Assembly: GCA_029261795.1 (NCBI GenBank)
Contig: JAJDAP010000095.1
Coordinates: 810 to 64,809, forward strand
Direction: 5' to 3'
Length of the DNA stretch: 64,000 nucleotides
Origin: Deltaproteobacteria bacterium
GTDB taxonomy: Bacteria > Myxococcota_A > UBA9160 > UBA6930
Position 1 is the stretch's first letter. Each line of letters starts with the position of its first letter. The translations under genes were made by a program, and so were the position numbers. A model generated the notes under the pieces. That model did not search any database. It saw only the letters and a program-made list of their open reading frames with translations, and was not told the origin of the DNA. Below are positions 22,563-54,910 of this stretch, piece after piece.

Positions 22563-22686
22563 GGAGATCCTTCAGCGGGGGGCAGGCTGGGTGCGATTCC
22601 CGCATTCTGGGGGCGCGAAGTAGAACACCCTAACCTGGGAACGGTCCAAAACCAAACTGAGTTTGAGCCATGCTCCGTGATTCGAC

Positions 22687-26953: not shown

Positions 26954-28654
26954 CTAACGTTTTCGCGGCGGGGGAAGATCCGTGGCGGTTCCCTCGGCGA
27001 CTTCGGCCGCGAAGGCCACCGTCTCCGCAAGGGTCGGGTGTGCATGAACGGTGAGCCCGAGGTCGGCCGCGTCCGCGCCCATCTCGATGCCCAGGGTGGG
27101 TTCGGCGATCAGTTCGCCGGCATGGACGCCGACGATGCCGGCGCCCAGCAGGCGTCCGTCCTCGACCGAGAAGAGCAGCTTGGTCAAGCCGTCGGTTCGC
27201 CCGACGCCGATGGCGCGGCCGCTGGCCGCCCAGGGGAAGACACCCTTGCGGATTTCGATGCCCTGGCGCGCTGCGTCCTCTTCGGTGAGGCCAGCCCAGG
27301 CCACCTCGGGGTCCGTGTAGGCGACGGACGGGATCGTGCGCGCGTCGAACGCGCTCTTCTGGCCGGCCGCAACCTCGGCGGCGACCTTGCCCTGATGCGT
27401 CGCGCGGTGGGCGAGCTGGGGTTGCCCGGTGAGGTCGCCGATCGCGAAGATGTGAGAGGCCGAGGTTCGCTGCTGCGCGTCGATGGCAACGACGCCCTGT
27501 TCATCGGGCTGGATGCCGAGCAGGTCCAAGCCGATGCCCTCGTGATTCGTGCGTCGGCCGACGGCGACCAGCACGCGGTCGAACTCGGCTTCCGGCGGTG
27601 CGTCGTCGCCTTGATAGGTGACGCGCAGACCGGCATCGTCGGCCTCGATCCCGCCGAGGCCCACACCGAGGTGGATCGCCGTGCAACGTTTGCGGAGATC
27701 CTTCTCGAGGGGCCGCACCAGATCGCGATCGACGCCGACCATCAGTCGGTCCAGCAATTCGACGACGGTTACCTGCCAGCCGAACGAGAGGTAGACCGTG
27801 GCCATCTCGAGGCCGATGATGCCGCCGCCGACCACGAGCATGCGGCCTGGAGGGCCGTCGAGCTCGAGGGCGCCGGTCGAATCGATGATGCGGGGGTCGT
27901 CGGGCAGTCCGGGGATCACGACGGGTCGCGAGCCGGTCGCGAGAATCGCGTTCTCGAAGCCCAGCACGCGCGGACCGTCAGCGGTCTCGACCGTCAGCTC
28001 GTGGCTGCCGGTGAAGCGGCCGGTTCCGTGGATGACGCTGACGCCCCGCGCCTTCGCGAGGCCGTCGAGCCCGCGCGTCAAGGTGCCGACGACCTCGTCC
28101 TTGCGGGCGCGGATGCGCGCCCAATCGAAACTCGGCTCGGAGAAGCCGATGCCATGGGCACCGAGCGCCTTGGCCTCTTCGAGAACGCCCGCCATGTGGA
28201 GCAGCGCTTTGGACGGGATGCAGCCGACGTTGAGGCATACCCCGCCTAGCGTTGCGTCGCGCTCGACGAGGATGACCGACAGCCCGAGGTCGGCCGCGCG
28301 AAACGCCGCGGTGTAGCCGCCAGGCCCTGCGCCCAACACGATCAGGTCCGCGCGTCCGGGCGCCGAAGCCGTCGGCGCCTTCGTGTCGGTTTCGGCAGGC
28401 GCGGCCTCGCTGGCTTCCACGGACAACACGCAGAGTTCGCTGCCCTCTCCAACCTGGCTCCCCTCGCTGACCGTCAGCGAAAGCACGATACCGGCTGCCG
28501 GCGAAGGAACTTCCATCGAAGCCTTGTCGCTTTCGAGCACCAGCAGGGATTGCTCGACTTCCACGCGGTCGCCCACGCGAACCAATAACTCGACGACGTC
28601 GACGAGATCGAACTCGCCGATATCGGGCACACAGACCGACAGGGTTTCCGGCAT
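26954..28654 (-). CDS. lpdA: dihydrolipoyl dehydrogenase (E3) with N-terminal lipoyl domain
   Basis: 566 aa. Lipoyl motif 'LLVLESDKASMEVPSP'. FAD motif 'LIVLGAGPGGYTAA'. Redox disulfide 'GGVCLNVGCIPSK'. C-terminal 'HAHPTLAE'. Confidence 0.92.
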   Translation of the reverse strand: MPETLSVCVPDIGEFDLVDVVELLVRVGDRVEVEQSLLVLESDKASMEVPSPAAGIVLSLTVSEGSQVGEGSELCVLSVEASEAAPAETDTKAPTASAPGRADLIVLGAGPGGYTAAFRAADLGLSVILVERDATLGGVCLNVGCIPSKALLHMAGVLEEAKALGAHGIGFSEPSFDWARIRARKDEVVGTLTRGLDGLAKARGVSVIHGTGRFTGSHELTVETADGPRVLGFENAILATGSRPVVIPGLPDDPRIIDSTGALELDGPPGRMLVVGGGIIGLEMATVYLSFGWQVTVVELLDRLMVGVDRDLVRPLEKDLRKRCTAIHLGVGLGGIEADDAGLRVTYQGDDAPPEAEFDRVLVAVGRRTNHEGIGLDLLGIQPDEQGVVAIDAQQRTSASHIFAIGDLTGQPQLAHRATHQGKVAAEVAAGQKSAFDARTIPSVAYTDPEVAWAGLTEEDAARQGIEIRKGVFPWAASGRAIGVGRTDGLTKLLFSVEDGRLLGAGIVGVHAGELIAEPTLGIEMGADAADLGLTVHAHPTLAETVAFAAEVAEGTATDLPPPRKR

Positions 28655-28656
28655 GG

Positions 28657-29961
28657 CTAGAGCAACAGCCTTCGCAGATCCGAGAGCAACAGCGTGAGGC
28701 GGCTGGTGAAGCGCACGGCGTCGGCGCCATCGATCACCCGGTGATCGTAGGAGAGCGACAACGGCAGGATCAGCCGCGGTACGAATTCACCCTCTCGGAG
28801 GACGGGTTTCCATTCCATGCGCGAGACGCCGAGGATGGCGACTTCCGGATGGTTCACGATGGGCGTGAAGAACGTGCCGCCGATGCCACCGAGGCTCGAG
28901 ATGCTGAAGCTCCCGCCCTGGAGGTCCTGCGGCCGGAGCTTCCGATCGCGGGCGCGCAGCGACAGATCTTCCAGTGCCCCGGCGAGTTCGAAGAGTCCCT
29001 TCGAATCCGCGCCTCGAATTACCGGCACGACCAGACCGTTTTCCGTATCGACGGCGACGCCGACGTTCAGGTAGCGCTTCAGGATCAGGTTCTCGCCGGT
29101 CGGGTCGAGCGAGGCATTGAAGTGGGGGAACTCCCGGAGGGCCGCCGTCACCGCCTTGACCACGAAGGGCAGGAAGGTCAGCTTCACACCCGCGGCCTCG
29201 GCTTCTCCCTTGTGCGCCTTTCGGAAGGCGTCGAGTTCCGTGATGTCGGCTTCGTCGAACTGGGTGACGTGGGGGACGGTGACCCAGCTGCGGTGCAGGT
29301 TGGCCGCCGAGAGCCGGCGAATCCGATTGAGTGGCGTGGTCTCTATTTCACCGAACTTCGTGAAGTCGATCGCGAGCGGCGCCGCCACGGCGACGCCCGC
29401 GATCGGAACGCCGCCGCCGCTCCCGGCCGCGAGCGAGGCCTTCACGAAGCGCTGCACGTCTTCGCGCGTCACGCGCGCCTTGCGGCCGGTTCCGGGAACC
29501 AGGTCCAGGGCGACGCCGAGTTCGCGAGCCAGCTGGCGCACCGAGGGGCTCGCGTGGGCTGCCACCGGCTTGTGGAGCTTGGGCGGCTCGGCGCCAATGG
29601 TTTCCGTGGCCGGTGCCAGGGCGTTCGGTGTGCCCACGATCGGCGTGTCGTCTGGGAGCGGTGCCGGCGCTGCAGCCGCTGTTGGCTTCGGTTCCGTCGG
29701 AGGCGCCGCTGCGGCTCCTTCGTCGAGGCGAATCACCGCGAGTCGCGCGCCTTCGCCGACGGCGTCGCCGACCGCGACCACGATCTCCTCGATCACGCCG
29801 GCGACCGGGGCCGGCACTTCCATCGAGGCCTTGTCGCTCTCGAGCACCAGGATCGATTGCTCGACGGCGACGTGTTCGCCCGGCCGGACCAGGATCTCGA
29901 CGACATCGGCGCTCTCGGTGTCGCCGATGTCGGGAAGGATGACGTCGTGGAGTTCGCTCAT
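28657..29961 (-). CDS. aceF: dihydrolipoyllysine-residue acetyltransferase (PDH E2)
   Basis: 434 aa. Lipoyl motif 'ILVLESDKASMEVPAP', E3-binding 'ASPSVRQLARELGV', and catalytic 'SLSYDHRVIDGA'. Confidence 0.92.
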   Translation of the reverse strand: MSELHDVILPDIGDTESADVVEILVRPGEHVAVEQSILVLESDKASMEVPAPVAGVIEEIVVAVGDAVGEGARLAVIRLDEGAAAAPPTEPKPTAAAAPAPLPDDTPIVGTPNALAPATETIGAEPPKLHKPVAAHASPSVRQLARELGVALDLVPGTGRKARVTREDVQRFVKASLAAGSGGGVPIAGVAVAAPLAIDFTKFGEIETTPLNRIRRLSAANLHRSWVTVPHVTQFDEADITELDAFRKAHKGEAEAAGVKLTFLPFVVKAVTAALREFPHFNASLDPTGENLILKRYLNVGVAVDTENGLVVPVIRGADSKGLFELAGALEDLSLRARDRKLRPQDLQGGSFSISSLGGIGGTFFTPIVNHPEVAILGVSRMEWKPVLREGEFVPRLILPLSLSYDHRVIDGADAVRFTSRLTLLLSDLRRLLL

Positions 29962-29970
29962 GCGGAGCGC

Positions 29971-32628
29971 CTAGGCCCGGACCGGGTCGAGCTTGCCAGC
30001 GTCGATGCCGTACTTCTCGATGGCCTGCTGCACGACCGCGGGCGGCAGGCTGCCGTCGTCACTCAAGGCCTTGAGTGCCGAGATTGCGATGTAGTAGCGA
30101 TCGATCTCGAAGTGGTGGCGCAAACGTTCGCGCATGTCCGAGCGGCCGAAGCCGTCCGTTCCGAGCGTGCGGTAGCGCGCTGGGACGAACGCACGGATCA
30201 GTTCCGGGAGCGCGCGCACGTAGTCGGTGGCCGCGATCACGGGCCCCAGGCGCCCAGACAGCTGCTCTTCGACATAGCATTGGCGTTGGGGTTCGCCGGG
30301 GTGCAGGCCGTTCCAACGCTCGACGGATTGACCGTCTCGCACGAGTTCGCCGAAGGACGTCACGCTCCACACGTCGGATTCGATCTGGAAATCGTCTCGC
30401 AGCAGGTCCGCCGCGGCCAGGGCTTCGCGCAGGATGGTGCCGCTGCCGAGGAGCTGGACGCGCTCGCCGTCGCCGCTTCCCTCCCGGATCGGGTACATCC
30501 CGCGCAGGATGCCCTCCTTCGCGCCTTCGGGCATGGCCGGATGCACGTAGTTCTCGTTCATCACCGTCACGTAGTAGAAGACGGCTTCGTCTTCCTGGTA
30601 CATGCGGCGGATGCCGTCGTGCAGGATCACGGCCAGTTCGTAGGCGTAGCTGGGATCGTAGGTCACGCAGTTCGGCACCGAGGAGAACCAGAGATGGCTG
30701 TGGCCGTCCTGGTGTTGCAGGCCTTCGCCAGCCAACGTGGTGCGTCCGCTGGTCCCGCCTAGCAAGAAGCCGCGTGTGCGGGAATCCGCGGCGGCCCAGA
30801 TCAGGTCGCCCACGCGCTGGATGCCGAACATCGAGTAGAAGATGTAGAACGGGATCATCGGCAGGTCGTGGGTGGCGTAGGAGGTCCCCGCGGCAATGAA
30901 CGAACAGAGCGCGCCGGCCTCGTTGATGCCTTCCTGGAGGATCTGCCCGTCCCTGTCTTCCCGGTAGTAGGCGATCGTGTCCGAATCGACCGGCTCGTAG
31001 AGCTGGCCCGTCGAGGCGTAGATGCCGAGCTGGCGGAACAAGCCCTCCATCCCGAAGGTGCGGGATTCGTCGGGAACGATCGGTACGATTCGCGGACCGA
31101 GTTCCTTGTCGCGAAGCAGCGTCGAGAGGATTCGCACGAAGGCCATCGTGGTCGACATCTCGCGCTCGCCGGAGCCCTTGAGCACGCTCTCGAACTTCTC
31201 GAGCGCCGGTAGCGGCAGCCGCGAGGCGCCGCGGCTCCGTTCGGGCAGGTAGCCGCCGAGTTCCTGTCGGCGCTCGTGGAGGTAGCGGATCTCGGGACTG
31301 TCCGGCTCCGGCTTGTAGAACGGCGCCTCCTGGATCTGATCGTCCGGGATCGGAATCCGGTAGCGATCGCGGAAGCGCCGCAGCGCGTCCTCGCCCAGCT
31401 TCTTCTGTTGGTGGGTGAAGTTCTGCCCTTCGCCGGCTTCACCCATCCCGTAGCCCTTGACCGTCTTGGCGAGGATGACCGTGGGCTGCCCTTCGTGGTG
31501 CACGGCCGCATGATAGGCGGCGTGGATCTTGCCCGGGTCGTGGCCACCGCGGTTCAGCTGCCAGATGTCGTCGTCGGTCATGTTGGCGACCAGGGCCTGC
31601 AGCTCTGGATGCGCGCCGAAGAAGTGCTCGCGCACGTAGGCGCCGCCCTTGGCCTTGTACGCTTGATAGTCGCCGTCGACGGCGCGTTCCATGCGCTCGA
31701 GCAGCCGGCCGCTCTTGTCCTTGGCGATCAGCGGGTCCCAGCGATCGCCCCAGATCACCTTCAACACGTTCCAGCCAGCGCCGCGGAAGGTGCCTTCGAG
31801 TTCCTGGATGATCTTGCCGTTGCCGCGCACCGGTCCATCGAGGCGCTGCAGGTTGCAGTTCACCACGAAGATCAGGTTGTCGAGCCCTTCGCGAGCGGCC
31901 AGGCCGATGGCACCCAATGATTCCGGTTCGTCCATTTCGCCGTCGCCCATGAAGGCCCAGACCTTGCGGCCCTTCATCTCCTGCAGGCCCCGGTGTTCCA
32001 GGTACTTCATGAAGCGCGCCTGGTAGATCGCCTGGATCGGGCCGAGGCCCATCGAGACCGTGGGGAACTGCCAGAATGCGGGCATCAACCACGGGTGCGG
32101 GTAGGAGCTGAGGCCACCGCCGTCGACCTCCTGACGGAAGCGGTTGAGCTGCTCTTCGCTGATGCGGTCTTCGAGGAAGGCGCGGGCGTAGATTCCCGGC
32201 GAGCAGTGGCCCTGGATGAAGAGCAGGTCCGGGCCGTCGACGTGGCCCTTGCCCTTGAAGAAGTGATTGAAGCCGACGTCGTACAGGGTCGCCGCGCTCT
32301 GGAAACTCGCGATGTGGCCGCCGAGTTCAGTCGAGTGTCGGTTCGCCTGGATCACCATGGCCAGCGCATTCCAGCGGATGATCGAGCGGATGCGGTGCTC
32401 GAGGCCGGGTTCCCCCGGCATCGAGGGTTCTTCCGAAACGTGGATGGTGTTGAGGTACGCCGTCGTTGCTGAGTAGGGCAGGTGGGCGCCCGAGCGCCGG
32501 GCCTGGTCGATCAGACGCTCGATCAGGTAGTGGCCGCGCTCGGCGCCTTCGGTCCGGAACACCGACTCGAGTGCTTCGAGCCACTCCTCTGTCTCGACAG
32601 AATCCGAATCCGCCAGGCGATCGACCAT
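29971..32628 (-). CDS. aceE: pyruvate dehydrogenase E1 component (homodimeric type)
   Basis: 885 aa. 'GGHIASFQSAATLYDVGFNHFF', 'GDGEMDEPES' and the overall AceE-length architecture. GGAGG sits upstream of ATG 32628. Confidence 0.95.
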   Translation of the reverse strand: MVDRLADSDSVETEEWLEALESVFRTEGAERGHYLIERLIDQARRSGAHLPYSATTAYLNTIHVSEEPSMPGEPGLEHRIRSIIRWNALAMVIQANRHSTELGGHIASFQSAATLYDVGFNHFFKGKGHVDGPDLLFIQGHCSPGIYARAFLEDRISEEQLNRFRQEVDGGGLSSYPHPWLMPAFWQFPTVSMGLGPIQAIYQARFMKYLEHRGLQEMKGRKVWAFMGDGEMDEPESLGAIGLAAREGLDNLIFVVNCNLQRLDGPVRGNGKIIQELEGTFRGAGWNVLKVIWGDRWDPLIAKDKSGRLLERMERAVDGDYQAYKAKGGAYVREHFFGAHPELQALVANMTDDDIWQLNRGGHDPGKIHAAYHAAVHHEGQPTVILAKTVKGYGMGEAGEGQNFTHQQKKLGEDALRRFRDRYRIPIPDDQIQEAPFYKPEPDSPEIRYLHERRQELGGYLPERSRGASRLPLPALEKFESVLKGSGEREMSTTMAFVRILSTLLRDKELGPRIVPIVPDESRTFGMEGLFRQLGIYASTGQLYEPVDSDTIAYYREDRDGQILQEGINEAGALCSFIAAGTSYATHDLPMIPFYIFYSMFGIQRVGDLIWAAADSRTRGFLLGGTSGRTTLAGEGLQHQDGHSHLWFSSVPNCVTYDPSYAYELAVILHDGIRRMYQEDEAVFYYVTVMNENYVHPAMPEGAKEGILRGMYPIREGSGDGERVQLLGSGTILREALAAADLLRDDFQIESDVWSVTSFGELVRDGQSVERWNGLHPGEPQRQCYVEEQLSGRLGPVIAATDYVRALPELIRAFVPARYRTLGTDGFGRSDMRERLRHHFEIDRYYIAISALKALSDDGSLPPAVVQQAIEKYGIDAGKLDPVRA

Positions 32629-32778: not shown

Positions 32779-33630
32779 TCACCCTGTAGACAAGAAGCTC
32801 GTCACGGCCTCGGTGAAGGCATCGTTGCGGTCGCCGGCCACCATGTGGCCCGCACCGGAGACATCCACGTATTCGGCGTGCGGGACCAGCTCGAGAAACT
32901 CCTGGGCGTGGGCTTCCTCGACCAGTTCGCTCATGCGGCCGCGTACCAGCAGGGTCGGCACGGTCAGGCCGCGCGCTGCCTGCTTAAGGGCGTCAGGTTC
33001 GATCGGCGAGCCTTCGGGGCCTTCTCGTCGCATGAAGCCCGGGTCCCAATGCCAGCGCCAGCGGCCATCCTCGCGCAGTCGCAAGTTCTTCTCGAGGCCC
33101 GAAACGTCCTTTGGCCGCGGCCGATGCGGTAGGTAGCGGGCCACCGCATCCGCGGCTTCTTCGAGGCTTCCGAAGCCCTCGTCGATCCGGTCGGCCATGA
33201 ACGACTTGATCGTGTCGACGCCGGCCGCGTTCATGCTAGGCGTGACGTCGACGAGTACGAGATGCGAACCCGGAGGCGCGGGCGCTATGGCGTTGGCCAG
33301 CAGCCCTGCAAGACCGCCTAACGATGCACCCACCAGCGCGGGCGGTCGTGTCAGCTGCGCCGCGACCTCGACGGTGTCCTGGCCGAAGCGCTGAAAAGCG
33401 TAGTCGCCGGCACTCGACCAATCGCTGTCGCCGTGGCCGCGAAGGTCGAGGGCAATGCCGAACCAGCCCGCGTCGGCCAACGCTCGAGCGGTGCCACCCC
33501 ACGCATGTCGGGTCTGGCCACCGCCGTGCTGCAACAACACCGGCGGCGCCGTCGGATCGCCGAAGCCATCCGCTCGGAGCGTCAGGCCGTCGCTGGTCTG
33601 GAACTCGAGGAGCTGCGGCGCTTCGCTCAC
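32779..33630 (-). CDS. alpha/beta-fold hydrolase
   Basis: 283 aa with a GTG start overlapping the upstream stop (GTGA). 'PVLLQHGGGQTRHAW', nucleophile elbow 'LVGASLGG', and C-terminal 'SGAGHMVAGD'. Confidence 0.8.
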   Translation of the reverse strand: MSEAPQLLEFQTSDGLTLRADGFGDPTAPPVLLQHGGGQTRHAWGGTARALADAGWFGIALDLRGHGDSDWSSAGDYAFQRFGQDTVEVAAQLTRPPALVGASLGGLAGLLANAIAPAPPGSHLVLVDVTPSMNAAGVDTIKSFMADRIDEGFGSLEEAADAVARYLPHRPRPKDVSGLEKNLRLREDGRWRWHWDPGFMRREGPEGSPIEPDALKQAARGLTVPTLLVRGRMSELVEEAHAQEFLELVPHAEYVDVSGAGHMVAGDRNDAFTEAVTSFLSTG

Positions 33631-34691
33631 GCGGCCGCTTCGGCCTCGCGGTCTGCCAGGGCATTGAACGCCGCCAGGATGCGCTCACCGTCCGGGGCCC
33701 CAAGGATGCGCTGGCTCATCAGCTCGCGCTCCTGGGCTGCCGCCAGGCGCGGCCGCTCGACGGTGGCCCAACGCACCAGCCCCGCCCAGACGGAATCGAC
33801 GAGTTCGCTGCCGGGGATCTCGGCGCCGTCCTTGCCGCGGAAGTGGACACTCCGGATCTCGCCGAGGTAGAGCCGCAACGAACGCACATGGATCTCTTCG
33901 TCGGCGCGGATTCGGCCGACGATCTCGGCGGCGTGTTCCGCCTCCGGGCGTCGGCCCTTGAACAGGTCGGGGTCGCGCAACAGGGTCTCGCTCAGCTGGA
34001 AGCCGAGTTCGGCGCGGAACTCGATCAACAGCAGGTTCAGCAGGAAGGAAACCAGCCGCTGGTGTCCCTCGCTGATGTCCGGGTGCAGCGACAACTCTCC
34101 CTCTGGGCGCCCGATGTTCTCGGGAATCACCGGTTCCTCGAATTTCGTCTCGCCGAAGGCCAGGTCTCGCAGCGCGAACCACATCAAATCGTGGCCGCCG
34201 ATGCCCTGTTCGGGTTCGCCCCCCTCGTCGAGGCCGTGGGCCTTCAAGAGGCCGCCGTTCAGGTGGCCGATGGCCATCTCCGAGATGTCCTCGACGACGG
34301 CGTCGGCGAAGTTCGGCAACTCCATCGTCGCGAGCACGCGTCCGCGGGCCTCGATGTGCCCGGTGATGGTGAGCATGTTCCAGAAGGTCAGGCCCTGGCC
34401 TTCCTGGAGCAGCAATTTCATCTGCGCCGCGTTCGGATAGCGAATGCCCGAGAGGAGCGAGGCGTCGGCCTCCAGCCACTCCCCGCCCCGTTCGCGGAGT
34501 GCCGCGGTCCACGCCCCGAGGGCGGGTTCACGGAGCAGTGCCCGCGGCGGCTGATACGCGCCGTTTTCGAGGAATCCGCCGTGGATCCGGTGCCCGGCCT
34601 CGATCTGCGGTTTGGCGAACTCGTGAGAGCTGAGTAGTTCGTCCTCGGAATAGCGGAGCTTGCGTGCCATGGGGCCTCCAATGCGCGCCAA
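33627..34691 (-). CDS. conserved-looking all-alpha hypothetical protein (possible carboxylate/His metal site)
   Basis: 354 aa with coding-like composition. It is translationally coupled to the hydrolase. Motifs 'ITGHIEARG', 'ISEMAIGH', 'LLIEFRAE' and 'RADEEIHVRSL' (E-x-x-H). No family was recognised with confidence. Confidence 0.55.
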   Translation of the reverse strand: MARIGGPMARKLRYSEDELLSSHEFAKPQIEAGHRIHGGFLENGAYQPPRALLREPALGAWTAALRERGGEWLEADASLLSGIRYPNAAQMKLLLQEGQGLTFWNMLTITGHIEARGRVLATMELPNFADAVVEDISEMAIGHLNGGLLKAHGLDEGGEPEQGIGGHDLMWFALRDLAFGETKFEEPVIPENIGRPEGELSLHPDISEGHQRLVSFLLNLLLIEFRAELGFQLSETLLRDPDLFKGRRPEAEHAAEIVGRIRADEEIHVRSLRLYLGEIRSVHFRGKDGAEIPGSELVDSVWAGLVRWATVERPRLAAAQERELMSQRILGAPDGERILAAFNALADREAEAAA

Positions 34692-34876: not shown

Positions 34877-36037
34877 GTGGCCAGCGACAGCCCCGAAGTC
34901 TCGTTCGTTCTGCCCTGCCTCGATGAGGCCGAGACCCTCGAGCCTTGCATTCGCACCATCCAGCAATGCATCACCGACGCGAACCTCGACGCGGAGATCA
35001 TCGTCGCAGACAACGGCAGCAGCGACGGTTCCCGGGAGATCGCGACACGGCTGGGGGCACGTCTGGTCGAGGTCTCCGACCGCGGCTACGGCAACGCCTT
35101 GATGGGTGGTTTCGACGCGGCCCGGGGCCGCTTCCTGATCATGGGCGACGCCGACGAGTCCTACGACTTCGCCGAGGCGTTCCCGATGATCGAGGGGCTG
35201 CGCGCCGGCGCGGATCTCGTGATGGGTTCGCGCATGCAGGGTCGGATCGAGCCCGGCGCCATGCCGTGGCTGCATCGCTGGCTCGGCAATCCGGTGCTTT
35301 CCTTCGTGGGTCGCCTGCTATTCAGGACACCGGTTTCGGATTTCCACTGCGGGCTGCGCGGCCTGACGAAGAAGGCCTATCGACAACTCGGGCTTCGGAC
35401 CTCCGGAATGGAGTTCGCAAGCGAGATGGTCGTGAAGGCCGCGGCCCGGGGACTCCAGATCGGGGAAGTGCCGATCACGCTGCGTCCGGATGGCCGTTCC
35501 CGCGCTCCGCACCTGCAGACCTGGCGCGATGGTTGGCGCCATCTGCGTTTCATGATGGTGCTCTCGCCCCGCTGGACGCTATTCGCGCCGGGCCTGGTCC
35601 TGACCGCCCTCGGTGTGGCGGCGCTGGGCGCCCTTTCGCTCGGCCCGGTCGTGATCGGCAGCGTGAGCTTCGATGTCCACACGATGGTGGTTGCAAGCCT
35701 GCTCGTGATCGTCGGCTATCAGGCCGTGGGAATCGGGATCGCCGCGCGCATCTTCGCCGTCGAGGAGGAGATCGGACCGGCTGCGCCCTGGATGCGGAAC
35801 CTCTTCGATATCTTCACCCTCGAGCGTGGCATCGTGGCCGGCGCCCTGTTGACGCTGCTCGGCGTCGGCTTGATCGGAACCGCGGCGGCCGGTTGGGCGG
35901 ACGCCGGGTTCGGCCCCCTCGATCCTCGCGTCACGCTTCGTCCCGTGATCGTCGGGGCGACGCTGGCGGGAACCGGCGTGCAGACGCTGGCACTCTCCTT
36001 CGTCTACAGCATGCTCGGGATTCGTCGGAAACGTTAG
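34877..36037 (+). CDS. family-2 glycosyltransferase with C-terminal TM helices (polyprenol-phosphate sugar synthase-like)
   Basis: 386 aa. GTG start 6 nt after GGAGG. 'VSFVLPCLDEAETL...EIIVADNGSSDGSREIA...RGYGNALMGGF...LIMGDADESYDF' followed by ~4 hydrophobic helices. Confidence 0.85.
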   Translation: MASDSPEVSFVLPCLDEAETLEPCIRTIQQCITDANLDAEIIVADNGSSDGSREIATRLGARLVEVSDRGYGNALMGGFDAARGRFLIMGDADESYDFAEAFPMIEGLRAGADLVMGSRMQGRIEPGAMPWLHRWLGNPVLSFVGRLLFRTPVSDFHCGLRGLTKKAYRQLGLRTSGMEFASEMVVKAAARGLQIGEVPITLRPDGRSRAPHLQTWRDGWRHLRFMMVLSPRWTLFAPGLVLTALGVAALGALSLGPVVIGSVSFDVHTMVVASLLVIVGYQAVGIGIAARIFAVEEEIGPAAPWMRNLFDIFTLERGIVAGALLTLLGVGLIGTAAAGWADAGFGPLDPRVTLRPVIVGATLAGTGVQTLALSFVYSMLGIRRKR

Positions 36038-36580
36038 GTGCGCACGCTCGACCGTTGGCTCCAACGCTGGCGCGCCGCCAAGGCGCTGCCGTTCATTCGC
36101 GAAGGCGATCGGCTGCTCGATATCGGCTGCTATGACCGCGTGCTGATGGAGCGCGCGGCCGGCCGGGTGGCGAGCGCCCTGGGGGTCGATCCGTTGATCG
36201 AGGCCGGCCAACGGGGCCGGCTCCGTTGGCAGCGCGGGACCTTTCCCCAGGAGGTCGATTTCGAGGCCGGTGCTTTCGATTGCATCACGATGTTGGCGGT
36301 ACTCGAGCACGTCCCGCGCCCGTCGGAACTCGCCGCGGCCTGCGAACGGGTGCTGGCGCCGGGCGGTCGTGTCGTCCTCACGGTGCCGCACCCATTCGTC
36401 GACACCCTGCTCGACGTCCTGATCCGAAGCGGATTGGCCGACGGCATGTCCGAGGAGGAGCACCACGGCTTCGATGTCCGCAGCACCGGGTCGCTATTCG
36501 AAGCTGCGGGCCTGCGCCTGGTCTCGGTGCGCTCGTTCCAGCTCGGCTTGAATCGTCTGTTCGTCTTCGAGAAGGATTGA
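36038..36580 (+). CDS. class I SAM-dependent methyltransferase
   Basis: 180 aa. The GTG start immediately follows the GT2 stop. 'RLLDIGCYDRVL' (motif I-like), 'FDCITMLAVLEHVPRP' and 'GGRVVLTVP'. Confidence 0.7.
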   Translation: MRTLDRWLQRWRAAKALPFIREGDRLLDIGCYDRVLMERAAGRVASALGVDPLIEAGQRGRLRWQRGTFPQEVDFEAGAFDCITMLAVLEHVPRPSELAAACERVLAPGGRVVLTVPHPFVDTLLDVLIRSGLADGMSEEEHHGFDVRSTGSLFEAAGLRLVSVRSFQLGLNRLFVFEKD

Positions 36581-36598
36581 ACCGGCTCGCAGCGGCGA

Positions 36599-38863
36599 TC
36601 AACGAATCGCGGGCGTTGGTTCGGTGAGGCGCCGAAGATCCGGGCCCGGAATCGATTCGCCGCGACGAACCGCGGCCTCGGAAACGGCGACCTCGCCACC
36701 GCCGCCACTTCCGATCAGGCGGTAGCGGTCGCCGCTCTGGATGGCCGTGCTGCGGTCGCCGGTCGGGTAGGGGACGGTCAGGCGGTAGCGGCCGCTGCCG
36801 TTGCTGCGAGCGCGCACCTCGTAGCGCAGGGCTTCGCCGCGGGGGCTCTCGAGCGCGATCCGGGCCGTCACCGTCGAGCCGGGTTCGGCGCTGCCCTCGA
36901 TGCGCGCGCCCGCGACGATCTCGAACCAGCGGTAGGCGGCCGCGGCCCGGGTCAGCGGGTCGAGCCCGGCTTCATCGATGCCGGGCTTCCACGCAGCTTC
37001 GTGGATCAGCCGATGACGGGAGAGGGCGGCCACCTCGATGGTGCGGCCGTCGGAGCCGGTGTCGCGGGATTGGAAGCCGCGATGGAGGGCCGTGCGCCGT
37101 GCCATCGTCAACGGCTCGTAGGCCCGCCCATGCCCGGAGCCCCCGGGTGCGGCAAGCACATAGCGAACGCCTAGCGTCTCGAGCAGTTCGATGGCGCGTG
37201 TCTCATCGGATTCGCCGTAATAGCGTTCGGCGGCTTCGTAGCTGGCGCGGCCCCCGTAGACGCCGAAATTGTCCTGGACCATGGCGCGCCGCGCGTAGTA
37301 TCGCACCAGGTGTCCCTGGCCCCAGGGTGTGAGGACGGCGTATCCAGGGCCCGCCTCGGCAGCCAGCCAGCCCGGGCTCTCCGGGCTGTTTTCCCCCAGC
37401 CAGCGCGCCAGCGGAACCAGCGTGGCGATCCGCTCGTCCAGGCCGAGTTTGCGGGGCGCTTCGTTCCGCATCGCCCGCAGCACATCCCCCGAAGGCTCGG
37501 CGTACACCATGAGCGAGGTTCCGGTCGCGGCGAAGGCGAGGGCGGCGGCGGCCAGGCGCGGTTGATAGGCGCGCTCGACGAAGGCACCGGCCAGCAGGGC
37601 GACCGGAACGGCCAGTTCATTGGAGAATCGGATCTGGTTCGATGAGGCTGCAAAGAACGCGATGCTCCAGGCGATCAGCAACCAGACGCCACTTCCTTCG
37701 CCGGCGCGCACAGCACGCAAGCCCAGCCAGAACGCGACCGGCAGCACCAGCGCGATAGCCTGGGTGAAGAGCAACCGCGGCACGTTGACATCGAAGACGC
37801 CGCCCGCGGTCCACATGGAGCGGAGTTCGAGGACGTGGCTCTGGAAGTCCTCGGCCTCCTGGAACCAACCGGCGCCCACCAGCAACGCCTGGCCGAGTTC
37901 CGGCGCCGCGAGCACGGTCGCTCCGAGGCCGACGGCTCCGAGTCCGAGCGCGCTGCCAATCCTCTGGCCGCGCCTTCCGCCGAGGGGTGTGCGCGCCCAG
38001 AGCTCGGCGGACGAGCCGAGCACGGCGGCTCCGGCCGCGAACAGGACAGGCTGGAACGAGGACAGGACCAGCGGTGAGAAGCCGCCATACTCGAGCCAGA
38101 CGACGCCTAACGAAAAGGGTGCGATGGCCAGCGCGGCGACGCCACAGGCCAGCGCCAGCTCCCGGCCGCGCGCGATGGCGACCGATCGATCGCCGGCAGC
38201 GAGAACCGTGACAGAGGCGACGACGAGCGTGATCCCAACATGCAGGAGTGCGCCGGTCCAGATCAGCAGCACCGTCGCCATCGCGAGGCCGAGCTCGATG
38301 GCGACCCGCAGGCGGCGGCGTCCGACGGGCCCGTCCAGCCAGCGCATTCCGACGAATAGCAGCCAGCTGGTGGCCAGCACCGCGCCGACGTGGTGGTCGC
38401 TCTTTGCAATGCGCGAGGAGAGTTGGTGCGCGGGCAAGACCGCGAGAAGGAGTGCACAGGTGGCCGCCGCTCGATCCCCGAACTGGCGCCGCGCCATCGC
38501 GAAGACGAGCACGATCGTGGCGAGACCGATCAGGGGTGGGACGCCAGCGACCACGGCTTCGAGCCGCTCGCGATCCCCCGCTGCGCCGAAAGGCAGCGCC
38601 AGCGCCGCGATGCCGAGATCCCAGAGGGGCGGCCACACGATCTCGCCGCCATTCGGCGCGTTCACATAGGCGTCGCGGGAAAGCACGGCCGGGAAGTTCT
38701 CGACCGAGTACTCGATGCGGCGCAGGTGATAGAACTCATCGGCCCCACCCGGCGGCAGGATCCCTTGTTCGCTCACCACGGCGGGCCAGGGCACCACCAC
38801 GCGGACCACCGCACCCAGCACGAGTGCCGCAAGAAGGGCGAGTCCTGCACCTCCGCCGGGCAT
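36599..38863 (-). CDS. GT-C fold glycosyltransferase, STT3/AglB-like oligosaccharyltransferase homologue
   Basis: ATG at 38863; the track ORF extends to 39286 over the MarR gene and was trimmed. About 13 TM helices. The first loop, 'GGADEFYHLRRIEYSVENFPAVLSRDAYVNAPNGGEIVWPPLWD', resembles STT3/AglB 'DP.YH.R..E....FP...D....YP.G....W.PL'. After the last TM, 'LTPWGQGHLVRYYARRAMVQDNFGV' aligns with 'WWDYGY....A.R....DN'. Confidence 0.6.
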   Translation of the reverse strand: MPGGGAGLALLAALVLGAVVRVVVPWPAVVSEQGILPPGGADEFYHLRRIEYSVENFPAVLSRDAYVNAPNGGEIVWPPLWDLGIAALALPFGAAGDRERLEAVVAGVPPLIGLATIVLVFAMARRQFGDRAAATCALLLAVLPAHQLSSRIAKSDHHVGAVLATSWLLFVGMRWLDGPVGRRRLRVAIELGLAMATVLLIWTGALLHVGITLVVASVTVLAAGDRSVAIARGRELALACGVAALAIAPFSLGVVWLEYGGFSPLVLSSFQPVLFAAGAAVLGSSAELWARTPLGGRRGQRIGSALGLGAVGLGATVLAAPELGQALLVGAGWFQEAEDFQSHVLELRSMWTAGGVFDVNVPRLLFTQAIALVLPVAFWLGLRAVRAGEGSGVWLLIAWSIAFFAASSNQIRFSNELAVPVALLAGAFVERAYQPRLAAAALAFAATGTSLMVYAEPSGDVLRAMRNEAPRKLGLDERIATLVPLARWLGENSPESPGWLAAEAGPGYAVLTPWGQGHLVRYYARRAMVQDNFGVYGGRASYEAAERYYGESDETRAIELLETLGVRYVLAAPGGSGHGRAYEPLTMARRTALHRGFQSRDTGSDGRTIEVAALSRHRLIHEAAWKPGIDEAGLDPLTRAAAAYRWFEIVAGARIEGSAEPGSTVTARIALESPRGEALRYEVRARSNGSGRYRLTVPYPTGDRSTAIQSGDRYRLIGSGGGGEVAVSEAAVRRGESIPGPDLRRLTEPTPAIR

Positions 38864-38953
38864 GGCGTCGGAGCATGGCGGCTCCCGGGCCCGCCGCAAG
38901 CCGTTCGCGTCGCCCGTGTTTGAGCGGGCCTGCGGGACGGGTACCGTTCGAAG

Positions 38954-39418
38954 GTGGGATCCAGTCGAGACACGCGGCGCGGTGCCGCTCGCTATAGCGA
39001 GGCGGGTGCGGCGGTCTTCCAACTGCTCCAGGAACTCGATCGCAGTGGCGAGATCTGGGGCGACGAGGATGTGTCCCGCGGTCGGCTCTCGATCTTGCGG
39101 ATCCTGGCGACCCTGGGGCCGATGACGATCAGCGATGTCGCTCGAGCCCGGCGCAGCAGCCGTCAGGGCGCGCATCGCCTGAGTTCCGCGCTCGTCGATG
39201 AGGGCTGGATCTCGGCCCAGGAGAGTCCGGAAGATCGGCGCACCACTCGGCTCGAGCTCACCGCAGCCGGACTGGCCGCCTATCAAGCGCTGGCGGCCGC
39301 CGAAGCGGAGCGCTTGAACGCACTGGCCCGTGGCATCTCGGTCGCCGAGGTCCGGACCGCCTTGAAGGTGCTGAAGACCTTGCGACTCGGCGTCGCCGCG
39401 ATAGAGAGCAAGAAGTGA
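38954..39418 (+). CDS. MarR-family transcriptional regulator
   Basis: 154 aa with a GTG start. Winged HTH 'LSILRILATLGPMTISDVARARRSSRQGAHRLSSALVDEGWISAQESPEDRRTTRLELTAAG'. It is divergent from the GT-C gene with a 90-bp gap. Confidence 0.75.
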   Translation: MGSSRDTRRGAARYSEAGAAVFQLLQELDRSGEIWGDEDVSRGRLSILRILATLGPMTISDVARARRSSRQGAHRLSSALVDEGWISAQESPEDRRTTRLELTAAGLAAYQALAAAEAERLNALARGISVAEVRTALKVLKTLRLGVAAIESKK

Positions 39419-42265: not shown

Positions 42266-43474
42266 CTACAGAAGCTGAGACAAGAAGGTCTTCGCTGGAA
42301 CGACTAGCGGCCGCCGACCCTCCGCAAAGCAATCCGCGCCCACGTACTCCGAATCGAGAACGACCTGAAAGGCATGCGGAGCATCGAGCTGCCTTTGAAA
42401 GTACTCGAGGGCTCTGCCGATCTCCTCGTCCCGCTGCTTGACTTCGACGAGGAACCAGGGCTTTCCATCTCGTGCGACCAGAAAATCAACTTCACGCTTT
42501 TCCTTGTCGCGAAGATACCCGAGCTCGAACTTACCGAGACCCAGGTCGTTCCAGCCGTCCACAGCTTTGAGCAGGTGGCATGCGACGAAGGTCTCGGCCT
42601 TGTCTCCTGGGTCTTCGATGGAAGCCCAGTCTCGCAGGAACCACTTGGGCTCCTTTCGGAGCGAGCGGCTGACGTTCTTGAACCATGGCCTGACGAGGAA
42701 GCCGAGGTGAAGGCTTTGCAGGACCTCGACCCATCGGCGGATCGTATCGACAGTGACTCGCACCTCCTTTGCGAGGTTTCCGTAGATGAGCTGGTGAGCC
42801 GACCGACCGGATAGAAGCTTGACCAGAATCTGGAGCTGATCGATTTGTTGAATCTGCGTGAGGTCGCGGATGTCTTCGCGAACGAGCTGCTCCAATCGCA
42901 GCGATTGCCACCTTCGGCTGAAGCGCGAATCGCGCTTGAGGTAAGGCTCCGGATACCCGCCGTGCGTCCAGAGCGCCTCGTAGTTCGCAGCCTTGGGCTT
43001 CCTGGGTGCGCGAACGATTTGCTCAGGATCGGGAAGCGCCTTGGAAAGGCTCTCGGCGACTGAGAAGGGATGCATGCGGTAAGGGAAATAGCGCCCCATC
43101 AAGCTGTCACCGCCGCGTCGATAGACCTCCAGGCGGCTGCTACCCGTCACGATGACTCGCACTCGATCACCGTACACATCGAAGAATCCCTTCAGGAACT
43201 GCTTCCAGCGGGGGTACTTGTGCAGTTCGTCGAAGAGCACCGCTGGATTCCCAGCAGACAGCCGATTCAACCCCAAGGTCTCGACCAGAGCCGCGGATCC
43301 TGCCAGCAGTCGCTCGCGATCATCCTCGTTGTCCCAGTTGACGTAGAAGTCAGCGTGCCCTCGACACGTGGTCGTCTTCCCGACCTGACGGGGCCCGCTC
43401 ACGAAGGCCATCTGGCGATTGTGCGAGAAGTGCTCGGCCAGGAAGGCGTCGTAGATGCGCTTTGAGCGAGCCAT
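42266..43474 (-). CDS. AAA+ ATPase with DUF4143 domain (AAA_14 family)
   Basis: 402 aa. Walker A 'VSGPRQVGKTT' and Walker B 'AVLFDELH'. C-terminal 'KREVDFLVARDGKPWFLVEVK' is a restriction-endonuclease-like/DUF4143 region. Confidence 0.85.
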   Translation of the reverse strand: MARSKRIYDAFLAEHFSHNRQMAFVSGPRQVGKTTTCRGHADFYVNWDNEDDRERLLAGSAALVETLGLNRLSAGNPAVLFDELHKYPRWKQFLKGFFDVYGDRVRVIVTGSSRLEVYRRGGDSLMGRYFPYRMHPFSVAESLSKALPDPEQIVRAPRKPKAANYEALWTHGGYPEPYLKRDSRFSRRWQSLRLEQLVREDIRDLTQIQQIDQLQILVKLLSGRSAHQLIYGNLAKEVRVTVDTIRRWVEVLQSLHLGFLVRPWFKNVSRSLRKEPKWFLRDWASIEDPGDKAETFVACHLLKAVDGWNDLGLGKFELGYLRDKEKREVDFLVARDGKPWFLVEVKQRDEEIGRALEYFQRQLDAPHAFQVVLDSEYVGADCFAEGRRPLVVPAKTFLSQLL

Positions 43475-54184: not shown

Positions 54185-54910
54185 TTGCCCGCCCTCGAAA
54201 GACGCCTCGACTCGATTCGGTCGCGCCTCGAAGCGAGCTACCCTTGTCGCGTGAGTGAACCGCGTACGCGCCGCCCTCTGCTCCTCGTCGCGCTGGACAT
54301 TCTGTCGGTCCTCATCTTCGGGCTGACGCTCGCTTGGCTGGTTTCGCGTCTGGCCGGTGTGCCATCGCCGGAGGCGTGGCCGTTCATGCTCGGCGCCGCG
54401 CTCGCCGGGATCGCGCTCGCCGATTTCGGAACCGGGCTGATTCATTGGGCCGGCGACACCTTCGGCTCGGAGGGAACGCCGCTGTTGGGCCCCGCGGTCA
54501 TCGCTCCGTTTCGGGAACATCATCGGGATCCGTTCGACATCGTTCGCCACGGGTTCCTCGAAGTCACCGGCAACAACGCCTTGTTGATGAGCCCACTGCT
54601 CTTCGTCATGGCCGGCTTCGCGCCGCAGCTCGGCGCCTCGCCTTTCGCCGCGGCCGCCATTGCGGGCGGCCTCGCGTTCGTTGCGACCGCGGTCATCAGC
54701 AACCAGCTGCACCGTTGGGCGCACATGGCGCGGGTTCCGCGCCTCGTGGCCTGGCTCCAGCGCCACCACGTCATCCTGTCTCGGGTGGAACATTCGCGAC
54801 ATCATCGCGGCGCCCATGATCGCGGCTATTGCGTTGCCAACGGTTGGATGAATCCGCTGCTCGATCGTCTGGCGGCGTCGGGCGAGCGGCCCCGAGCCCA
54901 CCGCGCTTGA
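54185..54910 (+). CDS. CarF/TMEM189 (PEDS1, Kua-domain)-like membrane fatty-acid desaturase
   Basis: 241 aa with a TTG start as tracked. His boxes 'LIHWAGDTFG', 'FREHHRDPFDI', 'NQLHRWAHM' and 'RVEHSRHHRGAHDRGYCVANGWMNPLLD' match the TMEM189/CarF pattern. Confidence 0.72.
   Translation: MPALERRLDSIRSRLEASYPCRVSEPRTRRPLLLVALDILSVLIFGLTLAWLVSRLAGVPSPEAWPFMLGAALAGIALADFGTGLIHWAGDTFGSEGTPLLGPAVIAPFREHHRDPFDIVRHGFLEVTGNNALLMSPLLFVMAGFAPQLGASPFAAAAIAGGLAFVATAVISNQLHRWAHMARVPRLVAWLQRHHVILSRVEHSRHHRGAHDRGYCVANGWMNPLLDRLAASGERPRAHRA

Follow-up and report, generated by a model that had tools for sequence, protein, structure and literature searches.

Descriptions of bacterial N-glycosylation by way of a lipid carrier usually concern PglB and the epsilon- and delta-proteobacteria (PMC4973528), and PglB enzymes keep WWD[YW]G together with an MI or NL motif (PMC12229607). 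PglB, as found in Campylobacter and Desulfovibrio, is a single-subunit STT3-family enzyme with a GT-C fold and catalytic Asp and Glu residues, and it uses an Und-PP-linked oligosaccharide supplied by the pgl cluster. In Euryarchaeota, the sugar donors of AglB are Dol-P-linked (PMC5131992). The AglB-L of Archaeoglobus fulgidus (AfAglB-L; 3WAJ/3WAK/5GMY/7E9S) has a 13-TM GT-C core followed by periplasmic domains that include AglB_L1, and in the AglJ/AglP/AglB system of Haloferax volcanii the AglB-type transferase acts last, with AglP being a precedent for a cytoplasmic SAM methyltransferase in an N-glycosylation pathway. In oligosaccharyltransferases (OSTs), two carboxylates activate the Asn amide, the EL5 motif pairs with the backbone of the acceptor peptide, and the WWD hydrogen-bonding triad reads the +2 Ser/Thr; to our knowledge, protein is the acceptor of every GT66 enzyme characterised so far. 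The DK or MI motif, located on the helix that follows the central strand, forms the second wall of the Ser/Thr pocket. The WWDXG motif has been described as a universal and essential or necessary OST signature (PMC12229607, PMC5131992).

Two further groups of systems resemble the locus described here. In GtrB/GtrC, ArnC/ArnT, CsbB/YfhO and DPM/PMT, the polyprenyl-P-monosaccharide made by a GT2 serves as donor for a GT-C enzyme across the membrane, and three-component glycoconjugate modification follows this GT2 and GT-C pairing as a rule. The C-mannosyltransferase DPY19 has an STT3-like fold, uses Dol-P-Man and modifies an acceptor that is neither Asn nor part of a sequon, which makes it a precedent for other acceptors. 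We analysed a window of 64 kb (the whole stretch of DNA), from a host formerly classed in the Deltaproteobacteria, which encodes a GT2, a methyltransferase, an AglB-like GT-C protein and a MarR-family regulator side by side (Table 1).

Table 1 Genes and sequence motifs of the locus, with positions in the window
Feature	Position	Strand	Remarks
GT2 polyprenyl-phosphate hexose synthase-like glycosyltransferase	34877-36037	+	386 aa; N-terminal GT-A domain with D91-A-D93, C-terminal TM x4
Class I SAM-dependent methyltransferase, small, cytoplasmic	36038-36580	+	180 aa; Methyltransf_23
AglB/STT3-family GT-C glycosyltransferase (GT66-like)	36599-38863	-	754 aa; 13 TM helices, periplasmic domain including AglB_L1
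MarR-family regulator	38954-39418	+	PF01047, PF12802; divergent from the AglB-like gene
First external loop motif D42-E-F-Y-H-L-R-R	38717-38740	-	D42 = catalytic Asp47 of AfAglB-L (HMMER); translation checked
D156-H157-H158 metal/phosphate site	38390-38398	-	D161-H162-H163 of AfAglB-L (alignment); translation checked
EL5 motif H-V-L-E346, TIXE/SVSE counterpart with the catalytic Glu	37826-37837	-	Aligns with TIAE360 of AfAglB-L; translation checked
P513-W-G-Q-G517, degenerate WWDYG Ser/Thr-pocket motif	37313-37327	-	Aligns with W550-W-D-Y-G554 of AfAglB-L; translation checked

Gene layout and family of the AglB-like protein

An earlier note on this DNA had made five statements about the sequence, and all of them hold when checked by HMM, alignment, translation and gap length. 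The methyltransferase begins, as the note had observed, at the codon right after the GT2 stop, with a GTG start following TAG (...CGT TAG GTG...), and it is apparently translationally coupled to the GT2. The AglB-like gene is convergent with the methyltransferase gene, and the gap of 18 bp that had been read between their 3' ends is exactly 18 nt (36581–36598). On its other side, the start codons of the AglB-like gene and the divergent MarR gene are separated by 90 nt. The GT2, methyltransferase and AglB-like genes have GC3 values of 0.81–0.83 and conserved homologues exist for each, indicating that they are not chance open reading frames.

The 754-aa GT-C protein is a member of the STT3/AglB family, more precisely of the euryarchaeal AglB type. 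The models AglB_L1 (PF18079, 57.9 bits, gathering 23.6), AglB_core-like (PF22627, 30.6, gathering 27) and STT3 (PF02516, 28.9, gathering 24.5) all match above their gathering thresholds, whereas PMT_2 reaches only 17.6 bits against a threshold of 26.1. The sole OST model matched is TIGR04154, which describes euryarchaeal AglB (the archaeosortase A system-associated OST); the score of 257.6 bits lies under the cut-off of 450, and those of four further clade members range from 145 to 303 bits, so that this model marks the nearest subfamily and not a membership. A family profile of the clade matches AfAglB-L with 250 bits (E 5e-73) over nearly its full length. The AF2 model (pLDDT 89.7) has 13 membrane-length helices, the approximate number given in the earlier note, and these are followed by a periplasmic domain of 280 aa. 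In Foldseek, this model superimposes best on AfAglB-L (7E9S, TM 0.80), followed by human and yeast STT3 (0.5–0.6) and DPY19 (7ZLH, TM 0.57, E 7e-9), with PglB ranked below these (0.43–0.47) and ArnT at 0.28. The ArnT/PMT_2 identity that the note had weighed against STT3 is thus ruled out both by the PMT_2 score and by the structural comparison. In sequence, the three-component systems and DPY19 are only remotely related to the AglB-like protein, whose catalytic residues are of the OST type. A PglB lineage is ruled out as well, because no PglB chain matched the clade profile at E ≤1 and the Foldseek TM remains at 0.43–0.47. A lipid-monophosphate donor, unlike the Und-PP-oligosaccharide of PglB, is expected for the AglB-like enzyme, as in Euryarchaeota (PMC5131992). 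A protein identical to the 754-aa product is called on two other assemblies.

Catalytic residues and the acceptor-site motif

The clade comprises at least 150 clusters at 50% identity from Myxococcota MAGs, and motifs were counted on 171 sequences; a literature search found no paper on it. The by-eye alignment to STT3/AglB given in the earlier note proved correct in the HMMER alignment to AfAglB-L, which pairs DEFYHLRR with DPWYYYRL and TPWGQGHLVRYYARRAMVQDNF with SWWDYGHWIEAVAHRMPIANPF. Residues D42, D156-H-H158, W202, E346 and R412 thereby correspond to D47, D161-H-H163, W215, E360 and R426 of AfAglB-L. Except for W202, these residues are near-invariant in the clade: D42 is found in 166 of the 171 sequences, with gaps in the remaining members, the DHH site in 168 and the EL5 Glu in 169. 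V344 is present in 152 of 171, and the EL5 motif is strongly conserved in the form E-x-F-Q-x-x-V-x-E-S-x-P-L.

The acceptor-site motif differs from that of AfAglB-L, in which WWDYG takes the place of the PWGQG found here. The replacement of the WWD triad by P-W-G, which the earlier note had pointed out, lies at residues 513–515. Across the clade, the first Trp is present in 4/171 sequences, the second in 154/171, the Asp in 31/171 and the Gly in 169/171. The clade motif therefore takes the form x-W-x-x-G-H, in which positions 1, 3 and 4 drift and W514, G517 and H518 are conserved. Degeneration of the WWD motif is a property of the whole clade and not of one protein. The earlier note had suggested that a divergent STT3 clade with altered specificity would be novel; the clade is large, and its members are already automatically annotated as STT3 or OST in databases. 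Since the second Trp, the Gly and the His are conserved and the Asp occurs in 18% of the members, some reading of Ser/Thr is possible. Further downstream, the HMMER and hhalign alignments end or gap after the R-Y-V-V strand, before the DK/MI region; the DK segment of AfAglB-L (ETGKYYAM) has no alignable counterpart in the clade, and the ~30-residue insertion of AfAglB-L is absent here. By eye, a conserved S-M-x-x-R-L....G helix (residues 586–596) might be the DK/MI counterpart, with M/L at the Lys position.

Among the relatives found, the nearest with a WWDYG motif is an AglB-like group from Acidobacteriota (P0029 set, 'STT3 domain-containing protein [Thermoanaerobaculia bacterium]'), which aligns with the clade at an hhalign probability of 100 over 546 columns and shares with it the EL1 D-x-x-Y-H-x-R, LFD, DHH and Q-N-R-F motifs. 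Unlike the clade, this sister group has WWD in 11/11 members and a DK-type G-K-F...W-A-G segment. Its TIGR04154 score is 408 bits, and its genes lie next to an Asparaginase_2 gene, without the GT2/methyltransferase pair.

Putative donor synthase, methyltransferase and gene neighbourhoods

Judged from its sequence, the GT2 is a polyprenyl-phosphate glycosyltransferase of the DPMS/GtrB/ArnC/AglJ type. The polyprenol-phosphate sugar synthase architecture proposed in the earlier note agrees with PF00535 (76.9 bits, gathering 23.3), with PF26629 (GT2_TM_C), which is on record for an identical protein, and with four hydrophobic or TM segments within residues 235–375. The D91-A-D93 (DxD) motif is invariant among the orthologues. 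The top PDB relatives are the Pyrococcus Dol-P-Man synthase (5MLZ, E 1e-11), GtrB (5EKP) and ArnC; the single-sequence AF2 model, at a pLDDT of 45.8, was of no use for judging the fold. Among NCBIfam models, the best matches are AglJ (TIGR04182, 117 bits across the whole model) and haloarchaeal Dol-P hexose transferase, both under curated cut-offs. The GT2 falls under the cut-off for all of the equivalog models AglJ, PpgS and ArnC, and the sugar is therefore not assigned.

The methyltransferase matches Methyltransf_23 (76.3 bits), and no TM segment was found in it. Quinones and lipids are the substrates of its nearest solved relatives, which are UbiG, MitM and a phosphatidylethanolamine N-methyltransferase, and no specific similarity to AglP was detected. 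Of 23 metagenome loci whose GT2 is at least 62% identical, 16 have the methyltransferase gene directly 3' of the GT2 orthologue.

The GT2 and the AglB-like protein are encoded together in the window and at loci L001, L002, L007, L011, L015, L027, L030–L034, L036, L044, L045, L047, L111 and L112. The genes are convergent in the window, L001, L030 and L047, co-directional in the order GT2, methyltransferase and AglB-like in L031, L032, L033, L034, L044 and L045, and arranged with the AglB-like gene before the GT2 in L015, L036 and L112; L111, a member only 33% identical, has the order methyltransferase, GT2, GDSL and AglB-like. The synteny of the three genes considered in the earlier note is thus borne out in relatives, in several gene orders, but only for part of the clade. 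When the AglB-like gene is taken as the starting point, only 6 of 24 species genomes have a GT2 within 8 kb, so that the linkage is not universal, and GT2 homologues below 58% identity never adjoin an AglB-like gene. ORF clustering, which was swamped by GC-rich shadow ORFs, found no universal neighbour across the loci; the neighbourhoods were read from annotated contexts and by targeted tblastn.

No phosphoglycosyl transferase, further glycosyltransferase or flippase gene was found in the window, nor were polysaccharide or LPS genes. In the three-component systems flippase genes are a point of difference: no GtrA- or ArnE/F-type gene adjoins the cassette, and no small flippase (GtrA, ArnE/F, GtcA) was found between 32.7 and 41.5 kb or elsewhere in the window. 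The inspected neighbourhoods contain no oligosaccharide assembly genes except a Bac_transf gene in L072, a locus without an AglB-like gene. The cassette differs in this way from archaeal AglB systems, having a bacterial host and a single linked GT2 in place of an oligosaccharide assembly cluster. Sulfatase-family genes of the alkaline-phosphatase superfamily recur in the same clusters. This superfamily includes the periplasmic modifiers LtaS, OpgB and EptA, and a true sulfatase role of the recurrent neighbour is doubtful, given that it lacks the C/S-x-P-x-R motif. Other GT-C genes also adjoin clade members, namely YfhO in L110 and PMT_2 in L004.

Proposed pathway and alternative explanations

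Those checks proposed in the earlier note that were run, by HMMs, structure prediction and synteny, came out in favour of its reading as a periplasmic glycosylation module. We give an even chance to a reading in which the locus is a self-contained periplasmic glycosylation cassette of archaeal (Agl) ancestry, carried by an uncultured member of the Myxococcota, with an Und-P-(methyl)hexose donor and an acceptor picked without the N-x-S/T rule. From its family and architecture, the membrane-anchored GT2 would use an active site on the cytoplasmic side to convert NDP-hexose into a polyprenyl-monophosphate hexose. The gene linkage suggests that the methyltransferase would methylate either the nucleotide sugar or the lipid-linked sugar, a step placed in the cytoplasm because SAM is available only there. 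The lipid-linked sugar would then be flipped across the membrane, and the AglB-type GT-C enzyme would transfer it on the periplasmic face by means of Asp42, D156-H-H158, Glu346 and Arg412. The sugar, a single and possibly O-methylated hexose, would go to an Asn of a protein or to some other nucleophile of an extended peptide. The lack of a phosphoglycosyl transferase, further glycosyltransferase or flippase in the 64 kb fits a monophosphate-linked monosaccharide donor. The cassette resembles the H. volcanii system in its AglJ-like GT2, SAM methyltransferase and final AglB-type transferase, but all of its scores fall under the equivalog cut-offs and its acceptor motif is altered. As no elongating glycosyltransferases (AglG/I/E equivalents) lie beside the cassette, unlike in H. 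volcanii, the glycan would be a monosaccharide.

We infer both an altered acceptor and a methylated sugar. With the amide-activating carboxylates kept and the WWD triad cut to a single Trp, the acceptor is most likely chosen without N-x-S/T, and because the catalytic residues are intact while the motif that reads N-x-S/T is missing, the AglB-like enzyme probably has another target. More tentatively, with slightly less than even confidence, we propose that the Myxococcota clade is the first GT66 branch with a non-sequon acceptor, transferring a single O-methylated hexose, carried on undecaprenyl phosphate, to proteins of the periplasm (at Asn or some other residue) or to a molecule of the envelope. 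In this view, the enzyme would have come from Euryarchaeota along with the AglJ-like synthase, and a non-sulfatase protein of the alkaline-phosphatase superfamily would often work beside it.

An unlikely alternative is that the enzyme, recruited from an OST ancestor, glycosylates a non-protein acceptor such as LPS/lipid A, a periplasmic glucan, an exopolysaccharide or a membrane lipid, in the manner of ArnC/ArnT, GtrB/GtrC and CsbB/YfhO. The GT2 and GT-C pairing would be expected of such a system, the peptide Ser/Thr pocket is lost in the clade, the recurrent sulfatase-family genes would suit a locus for envelope-polymer modification, and YfhO and PMT_2 genes stand beside clade members. However, the clade has a strongly conserved EL5 motif, the part of OSTs that pairs with the peptide backbone, and retains the amide-activating D42 and E346; the window holds no polysaccharide or LPS genes, and the characterised GT66 enzymes act on protein.

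It is less probable still that the protein is an ordinary N-oligosaccharyltransferase that still reads N-x-S/T and transfers an oligosaccharide whose assembly genes lie at another place in the genome, the GT2 and methyltransferase either supplying a decorating sugar or being unrelated neighbours. Two of the three WWD hydrogen-bonding residues are gone and their positions evolve freely, although the motif is called essential (PMC12229607, PMC5131992), and linkage to the GT2 and methyltransferase recurs in three independent gene orders, with oligosaccharide assembly genes missing from the inspected neighbourhoods apart from the one in L072. Family membership and the intact catalytic centre agree with an ordinary OST, as do the conserved W514, G517 and H518, the minority of members with the Asp, and the fact that the GT2 is not adjacent in most clade genomes; by eye, a hydrophobic residue may also sit at the DK-motif Lys position (S-M-x-x-R-L...G compared with G-K-F-R-x-L..W-A-G). 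A loss of transferase function, giving a pseudoenzyme or a hydrolase that frees sugar from the lipid carrier, would explain the degenerate signature and recalls the release of free oligosaccharide known for PglB, but it is very improbable and was set aside, because the clade, with at least 150 clusters at 50% identity, hardly varies at D42, DHH, E346 and R412, the gene encodes a full-length protein with a confident conserved fold, its linkage to a donor-making GT2 is conserved, and nothing would be gained by hydrolysing a monosaccharide carrier.

The AglB-like clade, which is large and uncharacterised, is a bacterial lineage derived from archaeal AglB and not from PglB. It has kept the catalytic centre while the sequon-reading motif drifts, and it is linked at the gene level with a lipid-monophosphate monosaccharide synthase and with methyltransferases; it would be a further case in which an Agl-type mini-pathway passed from archaea to bacteria. 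If the acceptor rule of the periplasmic cassette does differ, known GT66 chemistry would be extended, and the clade would be a natural experiment in which sequon recognition is uncoupled from catalysis and a possible source of relaxed-specificity enzymes for glycoengineering.

An Rfam search of the window gave no matches. The intergenic regions contain a single weak imperfect inverted repeat (38879–38939) and GC-rich palindromes, and we therefore claim no operator. The regulator itself matches PF01047 with 37.6 bits (gathering 24.6) and PF12802 with 35.2 bits. A MarR gene occupies the same position at L001, L027 and L030 and is absent there from more distant loci, and it is probably a local regulator of the cassette in this lineage, kept only in the nearest relatives.

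The GT2-methyltransferase pair and its surroundings

The start codon (GTG) of the methyltransferase abuts the TAG stop of the GT2 with no gap, the stops of the convergent methyltransferase and AglB-like membrane-protein genes are 18 nt apart, both as the earlier note had read them, and 90 nt separate the MarR start from that of the membrane protein. GC content at third codon positions is 0.81–0.83 in the GT2, methyltransferase and AglB-like genes, the three for which it was computed, and identical gene calls were obtained on two independently assembled metagenome contigs. All four genes of the cassette region are genuine, and the earlier note's sequence observations hold throughout. Between the GT2 and an alpha/beta hydrolase lies the gene of a 354-aa protein that has no match in Pfam or NCBIfam and no signal peptide; counterparts with 67–72% identity occupy the equivalent position in the related loci L001, L027 and L030.

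Features of the window and of related loci (L-numbers)
Feature	Locus	Coordinates	Strand	Remarks
GT2	window	34877-36037	+	386 aa
Methyltransferase	window	36038-36580	+	180 aa
AglB-like membrane protein	window	36599-38863	-	754 aa
MarR	window	38954-39418	+	154 aa
354-aa protein	window	33627-34691	-	
Sulfatase-family homologue	window	~1236-2648	-	
GDSL-lipase-like protein	window	17570-20251	-	893 aa; in lower-GC segment 16000-21000
Ku	window	21657-22562	-	divergent from LigD
LigD	window	22687-25206	+	full length
PDH E1/E2/E3	window	26954-32628		
AAA_14/DUF4143 ATPase	window	42266-43474	-	in lower-GC segment 42000-44600
943-aa protein	window	45819-48650	+	
Lipid_desat protein	window	54185-54910	+	PF10520
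Sulfatase-family gene	L027	10298-11860		PF00884
Sulfatase-family gene	L028	10377-11849		PF00884
Sulfatase-family gene	L002	10372-11694		PF00884
Sulfatase-family gene	L011	10244-11545		PF00884
Sulfatase-family gene	L111	10552-12981		PF00884
Sulfatase-family gene	L072	7277-8872		PF00884
Methyltransferases, AglB-like gene upstream region	L028	4963-8004		three genes
PMT_2 protein	L004	1610-3268	+	
YfhO	L110	9139-11496	-	
Asparaginase_2 and AglB-like genes	L113	5718-6908 and 7001-9265	- and +	PF01112; divergently adjacent

The GT2 matches PF00535 with 76.9 bits, has PF26629 GT2_TM_C on record and carries four hydrophobic C-terminal helices and an invariant D-A-D motif. Among solved structures it comes closest to the Pyrococcus dolichyl-phosphate mannose synthase 5MLZ, to GtrB 5EKP and to ArnC, and its top NCBIfam matches (haloarchaeal AglJ, Dol-P hexose transferase) all lie under the equivalog cut-offs. 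Together, these features identify the GT2 as a predicted polyprenyl-phosphate monosaccharide synthase, the architecture first recognised by eye, of unassigned sugar. The methyltransferase is an ordinary class I SAM enzyme that lacks TM segments; the substrates of its closest solved relatives (UbiG, MitM and a PE N-methyltransferase) are lipidic or small and say little about its own.

An AglB-type enzyme with a degenerate WWDXG motif

The 754-aa protein scored above threshold in three STT3/AglB Pfam models and did not do so for PMT_2, and its sole NCBIfam OST match was the euryarchaeal TIGR04154 (257.6 bits versus a cut-off of 450). The profile of its clade of Myxococcota AglB-like relatives matched Archaeoglobus fulgidus AglB-L (AfAglB-L) over nearly its full length, including the C-terminal AglB_L1 domain (250 bits, E 5e-73), versus 30–49 bits for eukaryotic STT3, and no PglB chain was found at E <= 1. 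The AF2 model (pLDDT 89.7, pTM 0.89) has 13 membrane helices, in agreement with the ~13 first counted, and Foldseek ranked AfAglB-L (TM 0.80) ahead of STT3 (0.5–0.6) and the C-mannosyltransferase DPY19 (0.57), then PglB (0.43–0.47) and lastly ArnT (0.28). An ArnT/PMT_2 identity, which the earlier note had named as a refuting result, is therefore rejected. The enzyme is a GT66 member of the AglB type, not the PglB type.

In the HMMER alignment with AfAglB-L, residues D42, D156-H-H158, W202, E346 and R412 correspond to D47, D161-H-H163, W215, E360 (the TIXE Glu) and R426, respectively, while P513-W-G-Q-G517 aligns with W550-W-D-Y-G554, so that the WWD triad reads P-W-G as the earlier note had proposed. 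An alignment of 171 relatives revealed nearly invariant catalytic positions (D42 in 166, DHH in 168, E346 in 169 and R412 in all 171) and a strongly conserved EL5 segment, E-x-F-Q-x-x-V-x-E-S-x-P-L. At the first position of the WWDXG motif, which forms part of the Ser/Thr pocket of oligosaccharyltransferases, Trp occurs in 4/171 and Pro in 66/171; at the third, Asp occurs in 31/171 and Gly in 58/171, and the fourth is unconstrained. Retained around the motif are the second Trp (154/171), the Gly (169/171) and the next His (163/171). Published accounts describe WWDXG as essential or necessary for OSTs to function and assign the DK/MI segment to the Ser/Thr pocket as well (PMC12229607, PMC5131992). 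Neither HMMER nor hhalign gave an alignment in the DK/MI region of the clade, for which a conserved S-M-x-x-R-L....G helix may be the counterpart.

In a rough NJ tree, members with [W/F/Y]-W-D-[L/I]-G-H lie near the root, beside a canonical WWDYG outgroup, and motif positions 1 and 3 drift throughout the remaining members. The closest canonical group found, annotated 'STT3 domain-containing protein [Thermoanaerobaculia bacterium]', has WWD in 11/11 and a DK-type G-K-F...W-A-G segment. The degenerate WWDXG motif is a defining trait of a large Myxococcota clade.

A word-indexed search returned just 29 relatives of the 754-aa protein, and an exhaustive profile search gave 7681 matches at E <= 1e-3, the best 150 of which (50%-identity cluster representatives) are all full-length clade members scoring >520 bits. 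One-genome-per-species data yielded 24 loci. Two are in MAGs with the label Spirochaetales/Spirochaetaceae, and all the others are in MAGs labelled as Myxococcota, Myxococcales or Deltaproteobacteria. The closest, L001, has 61% identity and the entire neighbourhood in common with the window: AdhC, TesB, MarR, cassette, orf354 and AceE. Database labels for clade proteins are generic (STT3/OST), and our literature searches found no published work on the clade. Lombard (2016) noted only that a few STT3 homologues from bacteria are placed inside Euryarchaeota, which would require two transfers or more (PMC4973528).

Gene linkage in relatives

The expected synteny of the three genes holds in part: linkage is recurrent and occurs in three gene orders, but a GT2 lies within 8 kb of the AglB-like gene in just 6 of the 24 species genomes (L001, L002, L007, L011, L013 and L015), and in L027, L111 and L112 as well. 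Surveyed from the GT2 side, 23 metagenome loci (GT2 identity >= 62%) have a methyltransferase directly after the GT2 in 16 cases and an adjacent AglB-like gene in nine, arranged convergently as in the window (L030, L047), co-directionally as GT2>MT>AglB-like (L031, L032, L033, L034, L044, L045) or as AglB-like>GT2>MT (L036). Most of the rest are contigs ending near the GT2-methyltransferase pair; the AglB-like gene is clearly missing within 9 kb in L038 and L048, and was never seen beside GT2 homologues of <58% identity. An AglB-like member of just 33% identity belongs to an MT>GT2>GDSL-like>AglB-like operon (L111). In L028, three different class I methyltransferase genes directly precede the AglB-like gene, with a 4-nt overlap between the third and the AglB-like start, and no GT2 lies within 8 kb. 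The three different orders argue for a functional tie rather than an inherited arrangement, in a linkage that characterises part of the clade and is not universal.

Beside the L028 set are a fatty-acid desaturase and an APH kinase-like gene. Other GT-C genes also neighbour clade members: a convergent YfhO gene overlaps the AglB-like one (L110/L014), and in L004 a PMT_2 protein is encoded ~2 kb upstream.

Genes of the sulfatase family (PF00884) are repeatedly found together with the AglB-like gene, the GT2-methyltransferase pair or both (L002, L004, L011, L017, L023, L027, L028, L043, L050 and L111), and L072 has overlapping Sulf>GT2>MT genes without an AglB-like gene. The two proteins inspected in full have W-T-K in place of the C/S-x-P-x-R formylglycine motif, and one has a lipobox; judged by this motif, the companions are probably not true sulfatases and may serve as acceptor, co-modifier or in donor recycling. 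The window cassette has no such gene, and the homologue elsewhere in the window is only 27% identical.

Proposed pathway and genomic setting

The analysis directly supports the family and fold of the enzyme, its conserved catalytic residues and degenerate WWD, the gene linkage and the lack of other pathway genes, and we infer the donor and acceptor; the earlier interpretation as a periplasmic glycosylation module survives all tests that could be run. No phosphoglycosyl transferase, further glycosyltransferase or flippase is encoded within the 64-kb window, which favours a monophosphate-linked monosaccharide from the single GT2 as donor. As a rule, euryarchaeal AglB uses lipid-monophosphate donors (PMC5131992). 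In the proposed pathway, the GT2 would make Und-P-hexose at the cytoplasmic face and the coupled methyltransferase would O-methylate the sugar, a step placed before flipping because SAM is cytoplasmic. The lipid-linked sugar would then be exposed by a flippase, or perhaps by the TM domain of the GT2, and the AglB-like enzyme would transfer it through OST chemistry.

Because the enzyme retains both of the carboxylates that activate the amide, as well as the EL5 motif that pairs with the peptide, we favour a protein acceptor (Asn) chosen without the +2 Ser/Thr rule, a reading to which we give about an even chance. Set against the same retained features, transfer to a non-protein envelope molecule, of the kind carried out by ArnT, GtrC or YfhO, appears unlikely. 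A canonical sequon OST would share the catalytic residues and is less probable still, given how rarely the first Trp and the Asp of WWDXG occur. Loss of function is very improbable beside the near-invariant catalytic positions.

On an Acidobacteriota-type contig (L113), a canonical WWDYG AglB-like protein (TIGR04154, 408 bits) is encoded beside an Asparaginase_2 gene. The Asparaginase_2 family includes glycosylasparaginases, and the two genes side by side suggest attachment and turnover of N-glycans.

The window cassette is surrounded by housekeeping genes, including those for PDH, Ku, LigD, TesB, AdhC, PurL and PurB. Ku and LigD (21657-25206) form a bacterial NHEJ module. The PF10520 protein, which we take to belong to the CarF/TMEM189 plasmanylethanolamine desaturase family, is in keeping with a Myxococcota origin. 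Two segments of lower GC (0.60 versus ~0.67) may be acquired islands. The 943-aa protein, whose sole Pfam match is a spermine/spermidine synthase domain (residues 506–631), looks like a large fusion.
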